Below are positions 3,382 to 32,938 of a stretch of DNA of 38,777 nucleotides, piece after piece. Position 1 is the stretch's first letter. The number at the start of each line of letters is the position of its first letter. Below the pieces are notes generated by a model, which ran no database searches, was not told the DNA's origin, and saw only the letters and a list, made by a program, of their open reading frames with translations. This DNA is from an uncultured Gammaproteobacteria bacterium. Its GTDB lineage: Bacteria; Patescibacteriota; Microgenomatia; Daviesbacterales; UBA10151. Position numbers and translations under genes: made by a program. The stretch lies in NCBI GenBank assembly GCA_964653745.1, contig CAZZHC010000002.1:1-38777 (forward strand), in the 5' to 3' direction.

Positions 3382-3533
3382 CCTTATAAGCCATGCAGAT
3401 GGTTTTTGAGACGTAAAAAAGAAAATAAATTTCAGTAAATCGCGTCCTTCGTCAGGACGTTGATACTGACTCAGGATAAACTGAGAGGTATCAGCGACTT
3501 GTCCTGAGGAACAAAGTGACGAAGGAAATACTG
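3382..3533 (+). promoter_or_regulatory. structured 5' leader RNA upstream of rplC with mutually exclusive pairings
   Basis: Hairpin H1 at 3443-3459 (cgtcct/aggacg) and hairpin H2 at 3462-3492 (gatac..ctcag/ctgag..gtatc). The segment tccttcgtca (3445-3454) can instead pair perfectly with tgacgaagga (3517-3526). Confidence 0.5.
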
Positions 3534-8616: not shown

Positions 8617-8985
8617 ATGGTACAACATCGAACAATGTTAAAAGTGGCTGATAATAGTGGAGCTAAAATTGTCCAGGTTATTCAACCCTTGGGCGGTTCT
8701 GGTAAAAGAAAAGCAACTATTAGTGAAATAGTGGTGGGGGTAGTGAAAGAGGCTGATCCTAATGGTCAGGTTAAAAGCGCTGAAATTGTTAAGGCTTTAA
8801 TTGTCAGGGCTAGAAAAGAGATTAGGAGAGACGATGGTTCTTATATTAAATTTGATGATAATGCTGCCGTCATTATTGATAAAGATGGTAATTTGCGAGC
8901 TACTCGGGTATTTGGACCAATTGCCCGGGAAGTTAGAGAAAAAGGTTTTACTAAAATTGCCTCACTGGCGCCGGAGGTATGGTAA
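8617..8985 (+). CDS. rplN: 50S ribosomal protein L14
   Basis: [17 protein letters not shown]...[12 protein letters not shown]-type L14 sequence. Confidence 0.97.
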
Positions 8986-9001
8986 TTCGACGACGCTCAT
9001 T

Positions 9002-9322
9002 ATGAAAATTAAAAAAGACGACACTGTACAAATACTTTTGGGAAAAGACCGGGGTAAAACTGGTAAAGTCCTGCGTGTCATCACCAAAGATAATAAAGTT
9101 TTGGTTGAGGGGGTTAATATGGTTAAAAGACATGTTAAAAAAAGCGGTCAATTTGAAGGTGGGGTACTTGATTTAGCCAAGCCAGTCAATATTAGTAATG
9201 TGATTCTGGTTTGTCCAAATTGTAAAAAAGCCACCAGGGTAGGTTTTAAAGTGGACAATGGAACAAAAATAAGGATATGCAAAAAATGCAAGGAGGTAAT
9301 TAATGTCAAGATTAAAAAATAA
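9002..9322 (+). CDS. rplX: 50S ribosomal protein L24 (KOW domain plus CxxC...CxxC C-terminal ribbon)
   Basis: MKIKKDDTVQILLGKDRGKTGKVLRV is the L24 KOW start. The upstream part of ORF 8801-9322 overlaps rplN and was discarded. Confidence 0.93.
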   Translation: MKIKKDDTVQILLGKDRGKTGKVLRVITKDNKVLVEGVNMVKRHVKKSGQFEGGVLDLAKPVNISNVILVCPNCKKATRVGFKVDNGTKIRICKKCKEVINVKIKK

Positions 9323-25118: not shown

Positions 25119-25194
25119 AATTTTCTTTTGACAGCTCCATCTTAAGGTTTGAGTGTGAGAGATGAGTTATGGGTTGGTAAGAAGAAGATAAAAT

Positions 25195-25203
25195 GCTACT
25201 ATA
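25195..25203 (+). promoter_or_regulatory. extended -10-like element tgctactat, 6 nt before the ppsA ATG (possible leaderless mRNA)
   Basis: TGnTACTAT at 25195-25203, with the ATG at 25209. No SD-like sequence fits in between. Confidence 0.35.
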
Positions 25204-25208
25204 AAATC

Positions 25209-27254
25209 ATGGATCAAAAATTTGTACTTCATCTTGACCAAGTAGGCATTGACGATGTAGGAGAAGTGGGAGGTAAAAATGCTTCTTTGGGAGAAATGAT
25301 TCAACATCTTGAACCCAAAGGGGTGAGTATTCCGGGTGGGTATGCGGTGACAGCTACTGCATACCGCCATTTTTTAACCAGTACAGGGTTGGTTGATTTT
25401 ATCAAAAAAACTTTAGAGGATCTAAACTCCAGTAATTTAACAAATCTTGCGTCACAGGCTGAAAAAATTAGGGAACAGATCAAAAAAACTGATTTTCCTA
25501 AAGAGTTGAAAGAGGCAATTGTTAAAGCTCATCGAGAGGCTGAACAAAAATACGGTAAAATGGGAGATTTTGCAGTTCGTTCTTCAGCCACAGCCGAGGA
25601 TTTACCTGATGCTTCTTTTGCCGGTGAACATGAAACTTTTTTAAATATTTCCGGGTCGGATAATATTTTAAAAGCAGTCCGTGCTTCTATGGCCTCACTT
25701 TTTACCGACCGCGCTATTTCTTACCGAGTGGATAAAGGATTTGACCATTTGAAAATTGCCCTCTCTGTTGGGGTGCAAAAAATGGTCAGATCCGACAAAG
25801 CCTCATCGGGCGTGATGTTTACACTGGATACTGAAACCGGTTTTCCTAATGTGGTGGTAATTCAGGGTTGTTGGGGTTTAGGAGAACTGATTGTTCAGGG
25901 GGAGGTAACTCCGGATGAATTCTTGGTTTTTAAAAAGACTTTGGATAAATTTAAGCCAATTATTAGTAAAAACCTGGGAGTTAAAAATCAAAAAATGGTT
26001 TATTCTGACAAAACTCCTACCAAAATTGTAGCCACTAGTCAAAAAGAAAGGGAAAACCTGGTTTTATCAGATGAAGAAGTTTTAAAATTAGCCAAGTGGG
26101 CAGTAGAGGTAGAAGATCACTACTGCCAAAAAAGAGGAAAATGGACTCCAATGGATTTAGAGTGGGCCAAAGATGGTCAAACCGGCAAGCTTTTTCTCGT
26201 TCAGGCCAGACCGGAAACAGTCCAATCCACGCGTGATTTTTCCAAAATTAAAGAGTATATCAGACAAGAAGATGGAAAAGAAATTGTCAAAGGGGCCTCG
26301 GTTGGTAATAAGATAGCCTCTGGACTGGCCCGAGTCATCTTGAATCCTGCGGATATAAAATTGTTTAGACAGGGAGAAATTTTGGTAACAGAAATGACTG
26401 ATCCGGACTGGGAACCAATTATGAAAATTGCAGCAGCAATTGTAACTAACAAAGGTGGTCGAACTTCTCACGCTGCCATTGTCTCCCGAGAGCTGGGAAT
26501 TCCTGCAGTGGTGGGGACTGAAGAGGCCACTGATAGAATTAAAACTGGTGAGAAAATCACTGTTGATTGTAGTGGTGCAGAAGGGAAAGTATTATCAGGA
26601 TTTTTGAAATTTAAAGTTGAAGAACATGATGTGGCAAAACTTCAAAAACCCAAAACTCATGTGATGTTAAATATTGCTACTCCGGACACTGCTTTTGAAA
26701 AATCGTTTTTACCCAACGAGGGAGTAGGGTTGGCCAGAGAAGAATTTATTATTGCTTCTGATATTGGTATTCATCCCAGGGCAGTTTTGGCTTATCCAAA
26801 ATTACCAGAAGCTTTAAAGAAAAAAATTGATCAAAGAACTTTTGGTTACTCTGATAAAGTGCAGTTTTATGTTGAGAAATTATCTTATGGTATTGCCAAA
26901 GTGGCAGCGGCTTTTTACCCAAAGAAAGTGATTGTCAGGTTTTCTGATTTTAAAACTAATGAGTATCGAAGTTTAATTGGGGGAGATTTATATGAGCCAG
27001 AAGAAGCAAATCCAATGATTGGCTGGCGAGGTGCCTCTCGTTATTATCATCCTGATTTTGCTGATGCTTTTGTTTTAGAGCTTAAGGCTATTAAAAAAGT
27101 CAGAGAGGAAATGGGGCTTGGTAACGTAGCAGTGATGATTCCAATGTGTAGAACTACCGAAGAAGGGAAAAAAGTTTTAACAATTATGGAAAAACATGGT
27201 TTAATAAGAGATCCCTCGACCCATTCGACTAACGCTCAGGGTCATACTGAGTAA
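25209..27254 (+). CDS. ppsA: phosphoenolpyruvate synthase, N-terminal 681 codons up to an in-frame TAA
   Basis: MDQKFVLHLDQVGIDDVGEVGGKNASLGEMI is the PpsA N-terminus, the phospho-His region is TNKGGRTSHAAIVSRELGIPAVVG, and a PEP-utilizer TIM barrel begins. The ORF stops at TAA 27252-27254 inside a 57-nt insert. Confidence 0.9.
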   Translation: MDQKFVLHLDQVGIDDVGEVGGKNASLGEMIQHLEPKGVSIPGGYAVTATAYRHFLTSTGLVDFIKKTLEDLNSSNLTNLASQAEKIREQIKKTDFPKELKEAIVKAHREAEQKYGKMGDFAVRSSATAEDLPDASFAGEHETFLNISGSDNILKAVRASMASLFTDRAISYRVDKGFDHLKIALSVGVQKMVRSDKASSGVMFTLDTETGFPNVVVIQGCWGLGELIVQGEVTPDEFLVFKKTLDKFKPIISKNLGVKNQKMVYSDKTPTKIVATSQKERENLVLSDEEVLKLAKWAVEVEDHYCQKRGKWTPMDLEWAKDGQTGKLFLVQARPETVQSTRDFSKIKEYIRQEDGKEIVKGASVGNKIASGLARVILNPADIKLFRQGEILVTEMTDPDWEPIMKIAAAIVTNKGGRTSHAAIVSRELGIPAVVGTEEATDRIKTGEKITVDCSGAEGKVLSGFLKFKVEEHDVAKLQKPKTHVMLNIATPDTAFEKSFLPNEGVGLAREEFIIASDIGIHPRAVLAYPKLPEALKKKIDQRTFGYSDKVQFYVEKLSYGIAKVAAAFYPKKVIVRFSDFKTNEYRSLIGGDLYEPEEANPMIGWRGASRYYHPDFADAFVLELKAIKKVREEMGLGNVAVMIPMCRTTEEGKKVLTIMEKHGLIRDPSTHSTNAQGHTE

Positions 27255-27275
27255 AGCCGAAGTACGACAAGCTCG
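27219..27275 (+). other. 57-nt in-frame insertion within ppsA carrying a hairpin and a TAA stop
   Basis: Bounded by TCG at 27216-27218 and 27273-27275. Removing it restores [17 protein letters not shown], which is colinear with my recollection of E. coli PpsA LKRGENGLKIIMMCEIP. The hairpin ctcag-ggtcata-ctgag lies at 27235-27251 and abuts the TAA. Confidence 0.75.
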
Positions 27276-27290
27276 GGACTAAAGGTTTAT

Positions 27291-27650
27291 GTGATGTGTG
27301 AAATCCCGGCCAATATTATTTTGGCAGATGAATTTTTAGAAATTTTTGATGGGATGAGTATTGGCAGTAATGACCTGACCCAGTTGACTCTTGGGATTGA
27401 CCGTGACGGCAATGAAACAATCAGGGGTATTAGCAATGAGAAAGATGAGGCAGTGAAAACTTTGATTAGTGAAGTGATCAAAAAATGCAAAGCCAGGGGA
27501 AAATATATCGGTATTTGTGGACAAGCTCCATCAGATTATCCAGATTTTGCCCAGTTTTTAGTTAAAGAGGGGATTGAAAGTATTTCCTTAAACCCTGATA
27601 GTGTGATAAAAACTACTTTGGCAATCCTTGAGGCGGAGAAGAGTCGGTGA
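27291..27650 (+). CDS. ppsA: phosphoenolpyruvate synthase, C-terminal portion (same frame as the N-terminal part)
   Basis: [41 protein letters not shown]...GICGQAPSD contains the catalytic Cys loop and the end of the barrel. Homology already begins at GLKVY (27276). Confidence 0.9.
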
Positions 27651-28822
27651 AAATTTCTGATATTAATTTAAAAATTATTCCTGATTCAAGAGGCAATGAT
27701 ACATTAGAAGTAGAGTTGGAATCTGCTGGAATAAAAGTTTCAGCCAGCGTGCCATCTGGTAAAAGCACTGGTAAGGGAGAGGTCGCAGTTTTGCCACCCA
27801 AAGATGCTCTGGAAAAAATTAACTGGATTTTTTCCCAAATTAAAGATCACGATTTTGCAACTTTGGAACAATTTGATCAACTTTTAATTACTTTAGATGG
27901 AACAGATGATAAATCTAGACTGGGTGGAAATTTAATTTTAGTTTTAAGTATTGCTTTTACAAAACTTTTGGCCAAACAGGGTGGGATGGAAGCCTGGCAG
28001 CTGATTAGTAAAATTTCTGGCAATCAAATAGGCAAACCAATTTGTTTTTTTAATTTAATTGAAGGGGGAGTACATGCTCAAAATTCGTTACCTTTTCAGG
28101 AATATTTATTTATCCCCCAAACAAGTTCTGCCAAAGAAAGTTTAGAAGACGTAATGATGGTGATTAAAATATTGGGAGATAAAATCCAGGAAAAATATGG
28201 GCAGTTAAAACAAGGGGATGAGGGTGGTTATATTGTGCCTTCATCTGATCCGAAAGTTGGTTTGGAAATTTTACAAGAAGTACAAAATGAGATGGGTGGT
28301 GAAAATAAACTAGGGCTAGACACCGCAGCATCAACCTTTTTTGAAAATGGTAAATATAAAATTGGAGATAAGGTTATGGGTACTGATAATTTATTTTCTT
28401 ACTACCAACTACTTACTACCAACTACCAACTACTTTCTATAGAAGATCCTTTTGCAGAAGATGATTGGGAAGGCTTTTCAAAAATAACTGACCAGTTGGG
28501 AGAAAAAGTTTGGATTGTGGGGGACGATTTAACAACCACCAATACCAGTAAAATTAAGTTGGCTGGTGAGAAAAAGGCAGTAAATGCTGTGATTATCAAG
28601 CCCAATCAAATTGGTACGGTCTCTGAAACTTTACAGGCAGTAAATTTGGCTAAAAGTTTGGGTTGGAAAATTATTGTGTCCCATCGTTCTGGTGAAACCA
28701 CGGACACTTTTATTGCAGATTTGGCAGTAGGGGTTGGAGCAGATGGATTTAAATCGGGTTGCCCCTTGCAAAAAGAACGATTGGTAAAGTATCAAAGATT
28801 GGTAGAAATAGAAAATGGTTGA
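27647..28822 (+). CDS. eno: enolase (short, divergent, 391 aa)
   Basis: [14 protein letters not shown]...[49 protein letters not shown] and [18 protein letters not shown]. The GTG start overlaps the ppsA stop. Confidence 0.9.
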
Positions 28823-30130: not shown

Positions 30131-32938
30131 GTGGCTAAAGATTTAACAAACCTCTTCTGTCCAAAATCAGTCGCAGTTATTGGTGCTTCCAGATCCCCCC
30201 AAAAAGTGGGGGCAATTGTGCTTAAAAATATTATTGAATCAAAATTTCCTGGTAAAATTTATCCTGTTAATCCCAATACTGAAACTATTAATAATCTGAC
30301 TTGTTTTAAAAATGTGGATAGTTTACCGGAAGTTGTTGATTTAGTAGTAATAGCTATTCCAGCCGTCCGAGTTTTGGCAGTGTTAAATGAAATTGGGGAA
30401 AAAGGAATTAAAAATGTGGTGGTGTTAGCAGCTGGTTTTAAAGAAAGTGGAGCGGAAGGAGAAAAATTAGAAAAAGATTTGGTTGAAATTTCCCAAAAAT
30501 ATAATTTAAATTTATTGGGGCCAAATTGTTTGGGCTTTGTTAATAATTTGTGTCCAATTAATGTAACATTTGGTCAAGCGTCTGCCAGCATCGGTAACCT
30601 GCGTTTTATTTCTCAATCTGGAGCCATTGCAGCCAGTTTGTTTGATTTTTGTAAATCTTCTGGTTTAGGATTTTCCCAGTTTATCACTTTGGGTAATAAA
30701 GCTGTCACTACCGAAAGTGATGTTTTAGAATATTTTCAAGGTGTTGCGCCCATTGAGTATCAAGAAGGATTATCCAAATCCCAACCAATTGGACTTTATT
30801 TAGAAAATATTTCTGATGGCTTAAAATTTTTAGAAATTGCACAGCAACTTTCGAAAACGGACCCCATCTTTATTTTAAAACCTGGTAAAAGTGAAGCAGG
30901 AGTTAAGGCTATGCACTCTCATACCGGGGCGATGGCTTCTGATAGTGCTGTTTTAGATGCGGTTTTAAATCAAGCCGATATCATCCGTTGCCAAACTTTG
31001 GAAGATTTTTTTGATTTTTCTCGGGCTTTTGCTTTTGAAAATGCACCAACTGGGCCTAAGGTAGCAATTATCTCCAATGCCGGTGGACCAGCGGTAATTT
31101 CAGCCGATGCAATTACCAGCGCTGGTTTAGAGCTTGCTCAATTTGATGACCAAACCCGTCAGGCTTTGGCCCAAATTTTACCAAGGTCGGCCAATATACT
31201 AAATCCAGTTGATGTTTTGGGTGATGCTTTGGCTGACCGTTTTGCCAAATCGGCAGAAATTATCCTGCAGGCAGAGGAGGTTGATGCTTTGGTAGTAATT
31301 TTAACTCCTCAAATCATGACTCAAATTGAGCAGACAGCCAAATATTTAGTAGAGCTGTCTAAAAAATATCAAAAGCCAATTCTTTGTTCTTTTATTGGCG
31401 GAAGTTTGGTGGTAGAGGGAGAGAAAATATTAAGCCAATATAAAATCCCTGTTTTTCGTTTTCCGGAACTGGCCATTAATGCCTTGTCTGCGATGTGGCA
31501 ATTTTATAAAAACCGGTTGCAAGAAGAAAATAATATGGCACAGGTTTCAACTATTGAACTGGATTTAATTAAAGTAAAACAAATTATTGCTGGTGCAAAG
31601 AGCAATAATCAAAAAACATTGGATAATTTGCAGGCCAATAATTTACTTTCATTAGCTGGGATTTTAACACCAGCAACTGCTGTGGTTGAAAGTTCTGATG
31701 TTGCTAGAAATTTTGCTAAGGAACATGGATATCCCGTGGTCTTGAAATTATCATCACCCGGACTTTTACATAAAAAAGAAATAGGGGGAGTGATTATTAA
31801 TATTTTAAATGAAGAGCAACTGCAAAAAGCTTGGGAAAAATTAGAGCAAAAATTGGAAAATGGATTTGAGATCCAAATCCAACAAGATGTAGGAGAGGGG
31901 GTGGAAGCAATTGTGGGGATAAAACATGATCCTAATTTTGGACCAGTTTTACTTTTTGGGGCAGGGGGTTCTTCGGCAGAACTTATCGCTGATAAAAATT
32001 TGCATTTATTACCAATTAATCTCACACAAGCCCAAAAATTAGTTGAACAATCCAAACTTTGTTCGCTTCTTAATTTTGATTTGCAAAAACTTAATGAGAC
32101 AATTGTTAGTTTTGGAAAATTGGCCCAAAATTTAGCAGAGGTAGCAGAGATGGAAATTAATCCTTTAATTATTACTAAAGATAATGTTTGGGCAGTTGAT
32201 GGTAAAGTAATACTCAAGGAAAATCAGGTGGAGCAAGTCGGCGGTCCCAAATTTCAAACAGCCAAGGTTGTAAAACATGTTAATTTGGCCAGTACCTATC
32301 ATTATTTTGAGTTTGAAACAAATGAGCCTTTAATTTTTAAACCAGGTCAATATATCAGTGTTAAAGTGGCTAGTGACCGAGTTAATTGTTACTCAATTGC
32401 TGGTAGTATAAACCCCAATCAATTTAGCTTGCTAATTGATATTTCACCGGGAGGTCCAGGATCACAATTTTTTGAAAAATTAAAAGTGGGCGGGCAAATG
32501 CTATATCTTGGACCATTTGGTATTTTTACTTTGGATATGGAAGATGAAGCTTCAAAATTATTATTTTTGGCAACTGGTAGTGGTTTGGCCCCGTTAAAAT
32601 GCATGATTGAACAAATTTTGTATAAAGAAAAAAGTCAGTTACCAATTGATTTATATCTTGGTTTAACTTCTCCAAAAGATTTATTCTGCGAGGATTATTT
32701 ACAAAATTTAGCCCGGCAATATTCTAACTTTCATTATAAAATAGTGATATGGAAAGGGGATCAATCTTGGCAAGGGGAAAGTGGATTTATTACTACCAGC
32801 CTAGATAAAGATTTAGCCGATGCAAGTGACGGGGCAGCTTATCTTTGTGGCAACCAAGAAATGATTGCCGATGCCACCAAAATACTCCTTGAGAAAAATA
32901 TGCCAAAAGAAAGGATTTACACTGAAAAATATTTTTAG
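30131..32938 (+). CDS. ADP-forming acyl/acetyl-CoA synthetase (fused alpha+beta) with C-terminal FNR-like FAD/NAD(P)-binding reductase domain
   Basis: 935-aa single ORF. It has the CoA-binding motif PKSVAVIGASRSPQKVG, the ligase-CoA motif GPNCLGF and an ATP-grasp domain (HGYPVVLKLSSPGLLHKKEIGGV). From about nt 32245 it has FNR motifs: KPGQYISV, CYSIAGS, LGPFG, FLATGSGLAPL, YLCGNQEM and a terminal aromatic YF. Confidence 0.85.
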   Translation: MAKDLTNLFCPKSVAVIGASRSPQKVGAIVLKNIIESKFPGKIYPVNPNTETINNLTCFKNVDSLPEVVDLVVIAIPAVRVLAVLNEIGEKGIKNVVVLAAGFKESGAEGEKLEKDLVEISQKYNLNLLGPNCLGFVNNLCPINVTFGQASASIGNLRFISQSGAIAASLFDFCKSSGLGFSQFITLGNKAVTTESDVLEYFQGVAPIEYQEGLSKSQPIGLYLENISDGLKFLEIAQQLSKTDPIFILKPGKSEAGVKAMHSHTGAMASDSAVLDAVLNQADIIRCQTLEDFFDFSRAFAFENAPTGPKVAIISNAGGPAVISADAITSAGLELAQFDDQTRQALAQILPRSANILNPVDVLGDALADRFAKSAEIILQAEEVDALVVILTPQIMTQIEQTAKYLVELSKKYQKPILCSFIGGSLVVEGEKILSQYKIPVFRFPELAINALSAMWQFYKNRLQEENNMAQVSTIELDLIKVKQIIAGAKSNNQKTLDNLQANNLLSLAGILTPATAVVESSDVARNFAKEHGYPVVLKLSSPGLLHKKEIGGVIINILNEEQLQKAWEKLEQKLENGFEIQIQQDVGEGVEAIVGIKHDPNFGPVLLFGAGGSSAELIADKNLHLLPINLTQAQKLVEQSKLCSLLNFDLQKLNETIVSFGKLAQNLAEVAEMEINPLIITKDNVWAVDGKVILKENQVEQVGGPKFQTAKVVKHVNLASTYHYFEFETNEPLIFKPGQYISVKVASDRVNCYSIAGSINPNQFSLLIDISPGGPGSQFFEKLKVGGQMLYLGPFGIFTLDMEDEASKLLFLATGSGLAPLKCMIEQILYKEKSQLPIDLYLGLTSPKDLFCEDYLQNLARQYSNFHYKIVIWKGDQSWQGESGFITTSLDKDLADASDGAAYLCGNQEMIADATKILLEKNMPKERIYTEKYF

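Follow-up and report, generated by a model that had tools for sequence, protein, structure and literature searches.

Does a gene that is intact in every respect except for one in-frame stop codon contain a recoding signal, or has it simply been broken? The question is raised by ppsA in the stretch of DNA analysed here (the window: 38,777 nt, contig CAZZHC010000002.1 of assembly GCA_964653745.1), which comes from a Daviesbacteria-type bacterium of the Candidate Phyla Radiation (CPR) with an assembly of 541 kb in 49 contigs, 86.5% complete. An earlier note, made from the sequence of the window alone, had described two ppsA open reading frames (ORFs) that lie in one frame and are parted by a single TAA (27252-27254), and had suggested programmed bypassing, a tiny mobile insertion, or recent pseudogenisation as explanations. 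Translation of 25149-27653 confirms a single PpsA frame in which this TAA is the sole internal stop. We find that a surface loop of PpsA carries a ~20-nt hairpin repeat, the unit, and that a 48-nt palindromic module is nested within it. The gene is probably a very young pseudogene, produced by repeat insertion and an ordinary later nonsense change, and not a recoding device.

The interruption of ppsA

The gene and its stop codon are laid out as follows.

25209-27254, + strand: 5' part of ppsA, 681 codons, from ATG 25209 to the in-frame TAA
27252-27254, + strand: in-frame TAA, with T at 27252 where the two closest copies of the module have C
27255-27650, + strand: 3' part of ppsA, in the same frame, with the catalytic Cys strand MCEIP and running through the natural TGA

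The 5' part takes in the ATP-grasp/PPDK_N and phosphohistidine swivel domains and some two thirds of the phosphoenolpyruvate (PEP)-binding TIM barrel. The 3' part matches positions 179-290 of 293 in PF02896, one of three Pfam families found on ppsA (PF01326, PF00391 and PF02896), and its end overlaps the start of the enolase gene (GTGA, 27647). In an alignment with the Neisseria PpsA of PDB entry 2ols (E 1e-242) the two parts are colinear with ~800 residues (residues 3 to 806), and GGRTSHAAI (the phosphohistidine motif) and MCEIP (the Cys strand) are both conserved. The alignment has one 19-residue gap, ...GLIRDPS[THSTNAQGHTE*SRSTTSS]GLKVYVMCE..., located in the surface loop before the catalytic Cys strand to which the earlier note had assigned the insert. 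Neither the translation nor the 2ols alignment reveals a further stop or frameshift, so the gene is otherwise undamaged and both of its halves are intact, again as claimed. The genome as a whole has 53 same-frame ORF pairs.

The inserted 57 nt are richer in G+C than their flanks (51% versus 37.5%), CTCG stands at both edges, and the hairpin CTCAG-GGTCATA-CTGAG touches the TAA; all of these properties had been recognised in the earlier note. The whole 57-mer occurs once in the 541-kb genome and has no 12-mer in common with the rest of it. The insert is absent from the PpsA of family relatives at 69-80% identity, and a protein search found no PpsA orthologue above 76% identity. An exact 24-mer from the centre of the insert was not found in collections of genome contigs and viral contigs, and a search of metagenome contigs with the degenerate codon pattern of the left flank found no conspecific and no empty site.

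One way in which such a gene could still function is as a two-piece enzyme, for which translation would stop at the TAA and restart at GTG 27291 or ATG 27294, the only possible restart codons in the 3' part, with the resulting 681-aa and 119-aa fragments assembling afterwards. The break lies in a surface loop that is tolerant of insertions, both parts are intact, the ORF from GTG 27291 is in the same frame as the upstream ppsA ORF, and a Shine-Dalgarno-like AAAGG is followed by a start codon 37 nt past the stop. However, there is no start codon between the TAA and 27291, and the C-terminal fragment would begin with (M)MCEIP, without most of the catalytic-Cys β-strand (LKVYV). The AAAGG (27280-27284) stands 6 nt, not 5 nt as previously stated, before GTG 27291 and is conserved L-K-V coding sequence; the entire AAAGG-N6-GTG stretch encodes the conserved L-K-V-Y-V and is present in intact orthologues as well. 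None of the 120 closest PpsA orthologues is split at the insert site. Together, these observations make a two-piece enzyme very unlikely.

A hairpin unit and a nested module in the PpsA loop

A short-word BLAST search of the insert against its own genome returned two 19-nt matches that have a motif in common, and these belong to a repeat family that is dispersed through the genome and that the first half of the insert matches. The unit of this family is ~20-24 nt in size and consists of a 4-5-bp stem that is variable but complementary, a 13-14-nt loop conserved as TTCG(A/G)C-N2-4-GCTCA, and a tail, (T/C)AAAC or CAAG. The own genome contains 25 motif-plus-stem matches, compared with 2-9 in shuffled genomes; stem pairing is 88% versus 68% in the shuffles, a partly circular comparison because the copies were chosen for having a stem. 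We built a covariance model (R1) from 24 own-genome copies, leaving out those in ppsA. R1 finds 23 unit copies at E<0.1 in the own genome and detects the unit in 35 of 41 genomes of the class, with 0-39 copies each. In the insert it recognises a unit on the + strand at 27218-27247 (16.5 bits) and one on the − strand at 27239-27267 (14.4 bits), scores that are weak genome-wide and meaningful for a 57-nt target.

The unit is not confined to this class. An exact 24-mer of the unit consensus, CCCTTCGACAAGCTCAGGGTAAAC, is present in more than 120 species-representative genomes (loci L022-L141) from many phyla, including CPR, Cyanobacteria, Chloroflexi, Bacteroidota, Alpha-, Beta- and Gammaproteobacteria, Planctomycetes, Verrucomicrobia, Spirochaetota, Actinomycetota, Omnitrophota and Fibrobacter, and also in the cultured isolates Sphingomonas vulcanisoli and Variovorax sp. 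At permissive thresholds Rfam gave nothing credible for the ppsA region, the own-genome repeat loci or the long-form units of other phyla (described below), and literature searches with the unit motif, its reverse complement and its typical peptides found no paper containing them. A ribozyme or K-turn reading of the unit loop, suggested by GA...GA around an inner stem and a GUC triplet on the opposite strand, was dropped, as there are two helices only and the spacing does not fit a hammerhead core.

Most of the 120 closest PpsA orthologues have a short loop at the position of the insert (for example GLKRGRDLK). The loop peptide is PSTSSG in P0011, PETNSG in P0012 and PSASSG in P0016; in P0052, P0068, P0093, P0103 and P0116 it is LRQAQG, in another frame and register, and in P0109 a second unit is nested within the first. 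Compared across the set, the units thus fall into two registers, LRQAQG lying 9 nt further upstream (the five proteins just named together with P0117, P0106 and P0109) and PSTSSG abutting GLK (P0011, P0012 and P0016). Because two frames and registers are represented, at least two independent unit insertions have occurred in one PpsA surface loop among CPR orthologues. Although R1 contains own-genome copies only, it scores 31.8, 30.9 and 23.2 bits on the PpsA loops of the orthologues L153, L151 and L155, respectively.

Comparison with L151 separates the older unit in the window from what was added to it. The L151 loop reads AAT CCT TCG ACA AGC TCA GGA CTA AAG (NPSTSSGLK), whereas the window reads GAT CCC TCG AC[48 nt]A AGC TCG GGA CTA AAG. 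When 27221-27268 is removed, the loop unit becomes DPSTSSGLK and is homologous to that of L151, the two changes within the unit (T>C and A>G) being a compensating pair. The restored sequence, ATCC-C-TCGAC joined to AAGCTC-G-GGAC, has the conserved loop and the complementary stem by which the unit is defined. Since removal of these 48 nt recovers an L151-like unit, the recent event was a 48-nt insertion into an older unit. The 57 nt originally described remain correct as the excess over proteobacterial PpsA (19 extra codons relative to 2ols); measured against the closest unit-bearing orthologues, however, the recent insertion is 48 nt. Likewise, the CTCG at both edges is real, but it is not the junction of the insertion, which is CGAC/CGAC. 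The nested arrangement is therefore:

27211-27220, + strand: 5' half of the outer unit, ATCC-C-TCGAC, comprising stem and first half of the conserved loop
27221-27268, + strand: inner palindromic module, 48 nt, CCATTCGACTAACGCTCAGGGTCATACTGAGTAAAGCCGAAGTACGAC
27235-27251, + strand: central hairpin of the module, CTCAG-GGTCATA-CTGAG, abutting the TAA
27269-27279, + strand: 3' half of the outer unit, AAGCTC-G-GGAC, comprising second half of the loop and stem

The module is itself made of two unit-like arms, one on the + strand at about 27221-27242 and one on the − strand at 27241-27268 (stem GTCGTAC/GTATGAC, loop TTCGGCTTTACTCA). Its central hairpin is the inner stem of a longer palindrome with arms at 27224-27239 and 27247-27261, and module and target both end in CGAC. 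A search for the 57-mer in other genomes, as proposed in the earlier note, is rewarded at the level of the module: BLAST with 27213-27285 against 96 genomes of the family identifies at least 22 copies of at least 50 nt in at least 14 genomes, at 78-92% identity, with the similarity spanning 50-65 nt. The own genome has one copy only, and the aligned consensus is CCATTCGATTAACACTCAGGGTCGTACTGAGTGGAATCGAAGTACGAC. Fourteen of the 15 copies that we read lie directly after the (T)TCGAC of a unit, with (T)ACGAC as the expected end, while the stem, central bases and 3' half of the host unit vary among copies. The sole copy read outside a unit, L172 (G009:C3:30658-30710), is flanked by TATGAC/TATGAT and has its last bases changed accordingly, which hints that either a short stretch of the target was duplicated or the terminal bases were copied from it. 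Across 13 distinct copies 95.5% of the cells in the palindrome are paired, with little covariation. The module of the window folds weakly and its hairpin is not unusually stable, with fold z-scores of +1.19 as RNA (106-nt region) and −0.85 to −1.5 as DNA (module). We found no paper on the 48-nt module or on a fixed nesting point after TTCGAC.

The relatives of the module also bear on the possibility that the insert arose as a chimera during assembly or has a foreign or synthetic origin, such as an adapter, a linker or a read from another organism. An extraneous origin would account for the elevated G+C content, the uniqueness of the insert in the genome and the absence of its central 24-mer from the genome and viral collections. 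However, the insert has copies of 91-92% identity in two other genera, occupies the same nesting position within a unit as 13 other copies and restores the frame precisely, and there is no 12-mer in common with the genome through which an assembly graph could have been mis-joined. To our knowledge, the insert is unlike any common sequencing adapter. Adapters, linkers and the 57-bp EZ-Tn5 linker scar were each rejected from their sequences and from the related copies in other genomes. Of all the explanations considered here, a chimeric or foreign insert is the least credible.

The comparisons thus demonstrate the first two steps in the history of the locus. A ~20-nt hairpin unit occupies the PpsA surface loop before the catalytic-Cys strand, and the 48-nt module is nested in that unit right after TCGAC, as 16 additional codons that preserve the ORF. 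The mobile insertion proposed in the earlier note was accordingly a sound idea as far as its nature is concerned, there being two nested families of dispersed palindromic mini-repeats, but the TCG duplication that went with it is not the true junction, and a functional two-piece enzyme is unlikely.

Translated copies, the stop codon and the fate of ppsA

If ribosomes skipped these elements, copies in other genes would have no need to keep the reading frame open. Ten own-genome units lie in-frame within ORFs of at least 161 aa; the hosts include PGK, TypA/BipA, AlaRS, TrpRS, DnaK, PolX, an ATP-dependent DNA ligase, TatD and a NUDIX protein, and the unit peptides are ALRQAQG, SFDxAQD or PSTGSG/GSAGSP. 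In TypA and TrpRS the unit copy forms a loop insertion of 5-6 residues relative to PDB homologues, while the alignment around the PGK copy is ambiguous. In other phyla, 30 of 74 unit copies fall within ORFs of at least 150 aa, and all 30 are open (27 in the sense orientation); in-gene CCCTTCGACAAGCTCAGGGTAAAC is translated nearly always as (A/T)LRQAQGK. Units within ORFs make up about half of the own-genome copies and 40% of those in other phyla. The module behaves in the same way. All five copies found in other ORFs of at least 146 aa are open, three of them in the frame used in ppsA (L158, 387 aa; L159, 570 aa; L166, 146 aa) and two in antisense frames (L164 and L173, 383 and 384 aa). L158 reads ...STHSTDAQGRTEQGRSTTSSGQ... 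and L159 reads ...PSTHSINTQGRTEWNRSTTGSG...; an example of in-frame read-through of a module copy is ...STHSTDAQGRTEQGRSTTSSG..., and the common in-frame peptide is ...STHS.N.QGRTE[Q/W].RSTT.SG.... Because the in-gene copies are consistently open in frame, they are translated and not skipped.

These results argue against recoding, in which the ribosome would either bypass from TCG 27216 to TCG 27273 or read through the UAA, yielding full-length PpsA. Programmed bypassing reportedly occurs in T4 gene 60 (work associated with Herr, Atkins and Gesteland) and at the byp elements of Magnusiomyces mitochondria, which Lang and co-workers are said to have described in 2014. The likeness to ppsA is real in outline: a short insert that is richer in G+C than the AT-rich coding sequence around it, matching codons at its edges (the in-frame TCG pair at 27216-27218 and 27273-27275, flanking 57 nt), an internal stop, a hairpin that abuts this stop, and intact halves on either side. 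In detail, however, the take-off TCG is followed by a sense codon, ACC (Thr), and the stop comes 11 codons later instead of next to it; the hairpin begins 17 nt downstream of the take-off codon and excludes it, and the fold is no better than shuffled sequence. The matching TCG codons are the two halves of the outer unit. Moreover, the in-gene members of both families are kept open and in frame, as the 10 own-genome units, the 30 units from other phyla and the five modules demonstrate. As to read-through, both release factors recognise UAA, the stop codon at which it is least likely to happen. Of four testable defining features of a bypass element, three are absent, and the matching codons alone are present. 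The simplest history would be a point mutation, and the recoding put forward in the earlier note is highly improbable.

The codon at the site of the TAA points to such a mutation. It is CAA (Gln) in L157 and L158, the two closest copies (91-92% identical), and TGG in most others, and TGA stops in this module frame are confined to copies that are not translated in that frame. In terms of the − strand unit, T 27252 occupies a loop base that is G in 24/24 own-genome copies and 59/59 other copies. Since the closest copies have CAA and the in-gene copies are open in the same frame, the stop is probably a later nonsense change. A third step would accordingly have been one C>T transition that converted the Gln codon CAA to TAA. 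Translation would then terminate normally at 27252 and release a PpsA of 681 residues, from which the final 119 residues are missing, the catalytic Cys among them; its predicted C-terminal end peptide is DPSTHSTNAQGHTE. ppsA is present in 6 of the 25 genera of the family, and many family genomes have neither PpsA nor pyruvate kinase; the gene may therefore be dispensable in this lineage, and its loss is plausible. For the TAA, the best supported of the earlier suggestions is thus the last one, a recent pseudogenisation or base-call error within a tolerated loop insertion.

The own genome has a 480-aa ORF (C1:37162-38601) with faint similarity to the PEP-utilizer barrel and no Pfam match at E<=0.001. 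ORFs of ~500 aa with weak similarity to this barrel are present in at least 12 other genera.

Several points weigh against a pseudogene. Neither half of ppsA is damaged and the length of the insertion is divisible by three, so that the stop could equally be a consensus error or a minority allele, and the collections searched contain no conspecific genome. The assembly has no pyruvate kinase (PF00224) and ppsA heads a conserved ppsA-eno operon, so loss of PpsA might be costly here. A T at the position of 27252 is common in other module copies (as TGG), and the direction of the change rests mainly on the two closest copies. In addition, the window module reaches just 85% identity with the module consensus, and the unit model R1 gives low scores to its arms.

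A serious alternative is that ppsA is intact in the cell and that T 27252 is an error of the consensus or the assembly, or else a minority allele that the assembler picked up. PpsA would then be made at full length, and its loop, lengthened by the repeats, would exceed that of unit-free orthologues by 21 residues. Consistent with an intact gene, the TAA is a lone lesion in an otherwise perfect 2.4-kb gene, the insertion is in-frame, the module is translated in the same frame in other genes, and the TAA is one base away from the CAA of the closest copies; the gene also leads a conserved operon in an assembly without pyruvate kinase. Against an error, consensus substitution errors from short reads are rare compared with real nonsense alleles, and a mis-join induced by within-genome repeats is unlikely given that the insert and the rest of the genome share no 12-mer. 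We regard an intact ppsA as unlikely and retain a very young pseudogene as the favoured reading of the locus.

Spread of the elements and related systems

The own genome contains three Y1_Tnp genes, candidates for moving the unit and the module, which resemble RAYTs, the tyrosine transposases associated with repetitive extragenic palindromic (REP) sequences; it also has two stand-alone GIY-YIG ORFs.

C12:7588-8295, C11:8040-8711 and C8:5651-6301, all − strand: Y1_Tnp RAYT-like ORFs, 217-236 aa, HUH
C5:9254-9454 (+ strand) and C1:17917-18138 (− strand): stand-alone GIY-YIG ORFs, 88-100 aa, one directly behind a tRNA

The Y1 ORFs have the motifs NHFHLLVK (HUH) and RYIHxNP and are IS200-like/RAYT-like. 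Y1_Tnp genes occur in 34 of the 41 genomes of the class, with up to 13 per genome, and their number correlates with the number of units (rho 0.43, p 0.005, uncorrected for phylogeny); Y1 genes are absent from two genomes with at least five units each, one of which is 100% complete. The C8 copy has a unit-like sequence some 100 nt downstream of it. Otherwise the RAYT-like ORFs have no flanking copies of the same repeat and are flanked by a different perfect hairpin, GTCCACC-TGAAA-GGTGGAC. With the correlation loose and the flanking hairpin different, a RAYT link to the units was set aside as an established connection, and both facts weigh against the scheme proposed below. The idea that units are the ends of a small GIY-YIG element was also rejected: both GIY-YIG ORFs are flanked by another repeat (GTCATTGCGAGCG...), not by TTCGAC units.

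Two mechanisms are weak candidates for the spread of unit and module. One is single-strand hairpin transposition by RAYT-like Y1 enzymes, of the REPIN/RAYT or IS200/IS605 type, for which the inverted doublets, the fixed insertion site after TTCGAC and the three RAYT-like genes in a 0.54-Mb genome would speak. The other is templated patch copying, in which the halves of the unit would act as homology arms.

The insertion site of the module has parallels elsewhere. Long-form units, whose TTCGAC-TC and TC-GCTCA surround an inner stem-loop of 15-28 nt private to each, occur in the own genome (C33:1293-1338) and at L054, L091, L103, L069 and L128, the last of which encloses an inverted unit instead of a private stem-loop. 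The point right after TTCGAC is a general site for extra hairpins in several phyla. We tentatively consider the module as a possible ultra-small element that parasitises another mobile element by site-specific insertion in the single-stranded unit loop 3' of TTCGAC. Its insertion would probably be brought about in trans by a hairpin-recognising enzyme, such as the RAYT-like Y1 transposases, and the module would be built so as to be translatable in the frame of its host. If this were true, the ppsA allele would be a natural snapshot of the cost of an element-in-element inside a gene.

Further unit copies are found near other genes. R1 detects unit-like copies in the window at 3442-3482 (+ strand, 17.6 bits), 3496-3529 (− strand, 13.0 bits) and 8980-9008 (+ strand, 24.4 bits); two of these lie upstream of rplC and one in the rplN-rplX spacer (TGGTAA-TTCGACGACGCTCA-TTATGAAA...). 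Units also accompany tRNA genes. At C1:30332-30520 (locus L143) a tRNA-Lys gene is followed by a unit doublet, 30401-30428 (+ strand) and 30461-30489 (− strand), in a piece of ~80 nt with a 17-nt direct repeat of the tRNA 3' end (AATCCCAGCCGGCTCAC) on either side, an arrangement that resembles a miniature integration scar. At C27:1713-1760 units fill the spacer between tRNA-Ser and tRNA-Arg, and at C5:57-85 a unit follows a tRNA.

The unit and the module have features in common with several known systems. Rickettsia palindromic elements (RPEs) are described as palindromic selfish repeats that lie in-frame in unrelated housekeeping genes, where they are translated and tolerated (Ogata et al. 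2000, Science 290:347; PMC10969869). Like RPEs, the elements described here are palindromic repeats inserted in-frame into housekeeping genes and translated as extra surface peptides. They differ in size, RPEs being about 100-150 bp long and the unit and module 20-24 nt and 48 nt, so that the translated in-frame palindrome of an RPE is present and its length is not. They differ as well in that RPEs are confined to Rickettsia, whereas the sequence of the unit is almost identical from phylum to phylum, and in that the present elements nest in one another at a fixed position; the distinction from RPEs is made by description, not by sequence.

REP sequences and REPINs, the inverted doublets of REPs, are described as short hairpin repeats in which the inverted doublet is the replicative form and RAYTs are the transposases (Bertels & Rainey 2011, PMC3116915; Nunvar et al. 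2010). Inverted doublets that fold into a longer hairpin are seen here in the module and at C27:1713-1760 and C1:30401-30489, with further unit doublets in Sphingomonas and at other loci. As with REPs and REPINs, insertion takes place into or beside copies that are already present (PMC3116915), and the genome encodes three RAYT-like Y1 (HUH) proteins. In contrast, REPs are extragenic and lineage-specific and flank their own RAYT gene, whereas about half of the copies here are in genes and the family is cosmopolitan; the stem is variable and the loop conserved, and the RAYT-like genes are flanked by another hairpin, GTCCACCTGAAAGGTGGAC.

The small dispersed repeats (SDRs) of Nostoc punctiforme and other cyanobacteria, which Elhai and colleagues are said to have described, are reportedly mobile repeats of ~21-27 nt that occur in genes, are nested and have no transposase of their own. 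The unit is likewise very small, found in genes, nested in other repeats and without an obvious transposase of its own. SDRs are, however, known from cyanobacteria only, and their comparison with the unit is by description, not by sequence. [quoted passage not shown] MITEs inserted in ORFs are described as inactivating or extending genes, as with the Coxiella QMITE (PMC5896051; review PMC10969869). The module has inverted arms, and its CGAC/CGAC junction may reflect a duplication of the target, the motif targeted or the element itself. It is, however, well below typical MITE size, and no parent insertion sequence with matching ends was found. The cosmopolitan unit and the nested Daviesbacteria module thus form an element system allied to RPEs, REPINs, SDRs and MITEs, and we found neither element described.

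At the level of the gene, an apparent recoding site resolves into a repeat insertion plus a nonsense change, an ordinary event. In annotation, ppsA would here be better treated as a probable pseudogene, or the base re-checked, than as two genes. At the level of the elements, a ~20-nt unit is shared across phyla in the surface loops of housekeeping proteins and serves in Daviesbacteria as a landing pad for the module. With their conserved loop and variable stem, these elements may offer a tractable system in which to study the movement of the smallest mobile DNAs, and they open the further question of how far they reshape or destroy proteins in candidate-phyla bacteria with their streamlined genomes.

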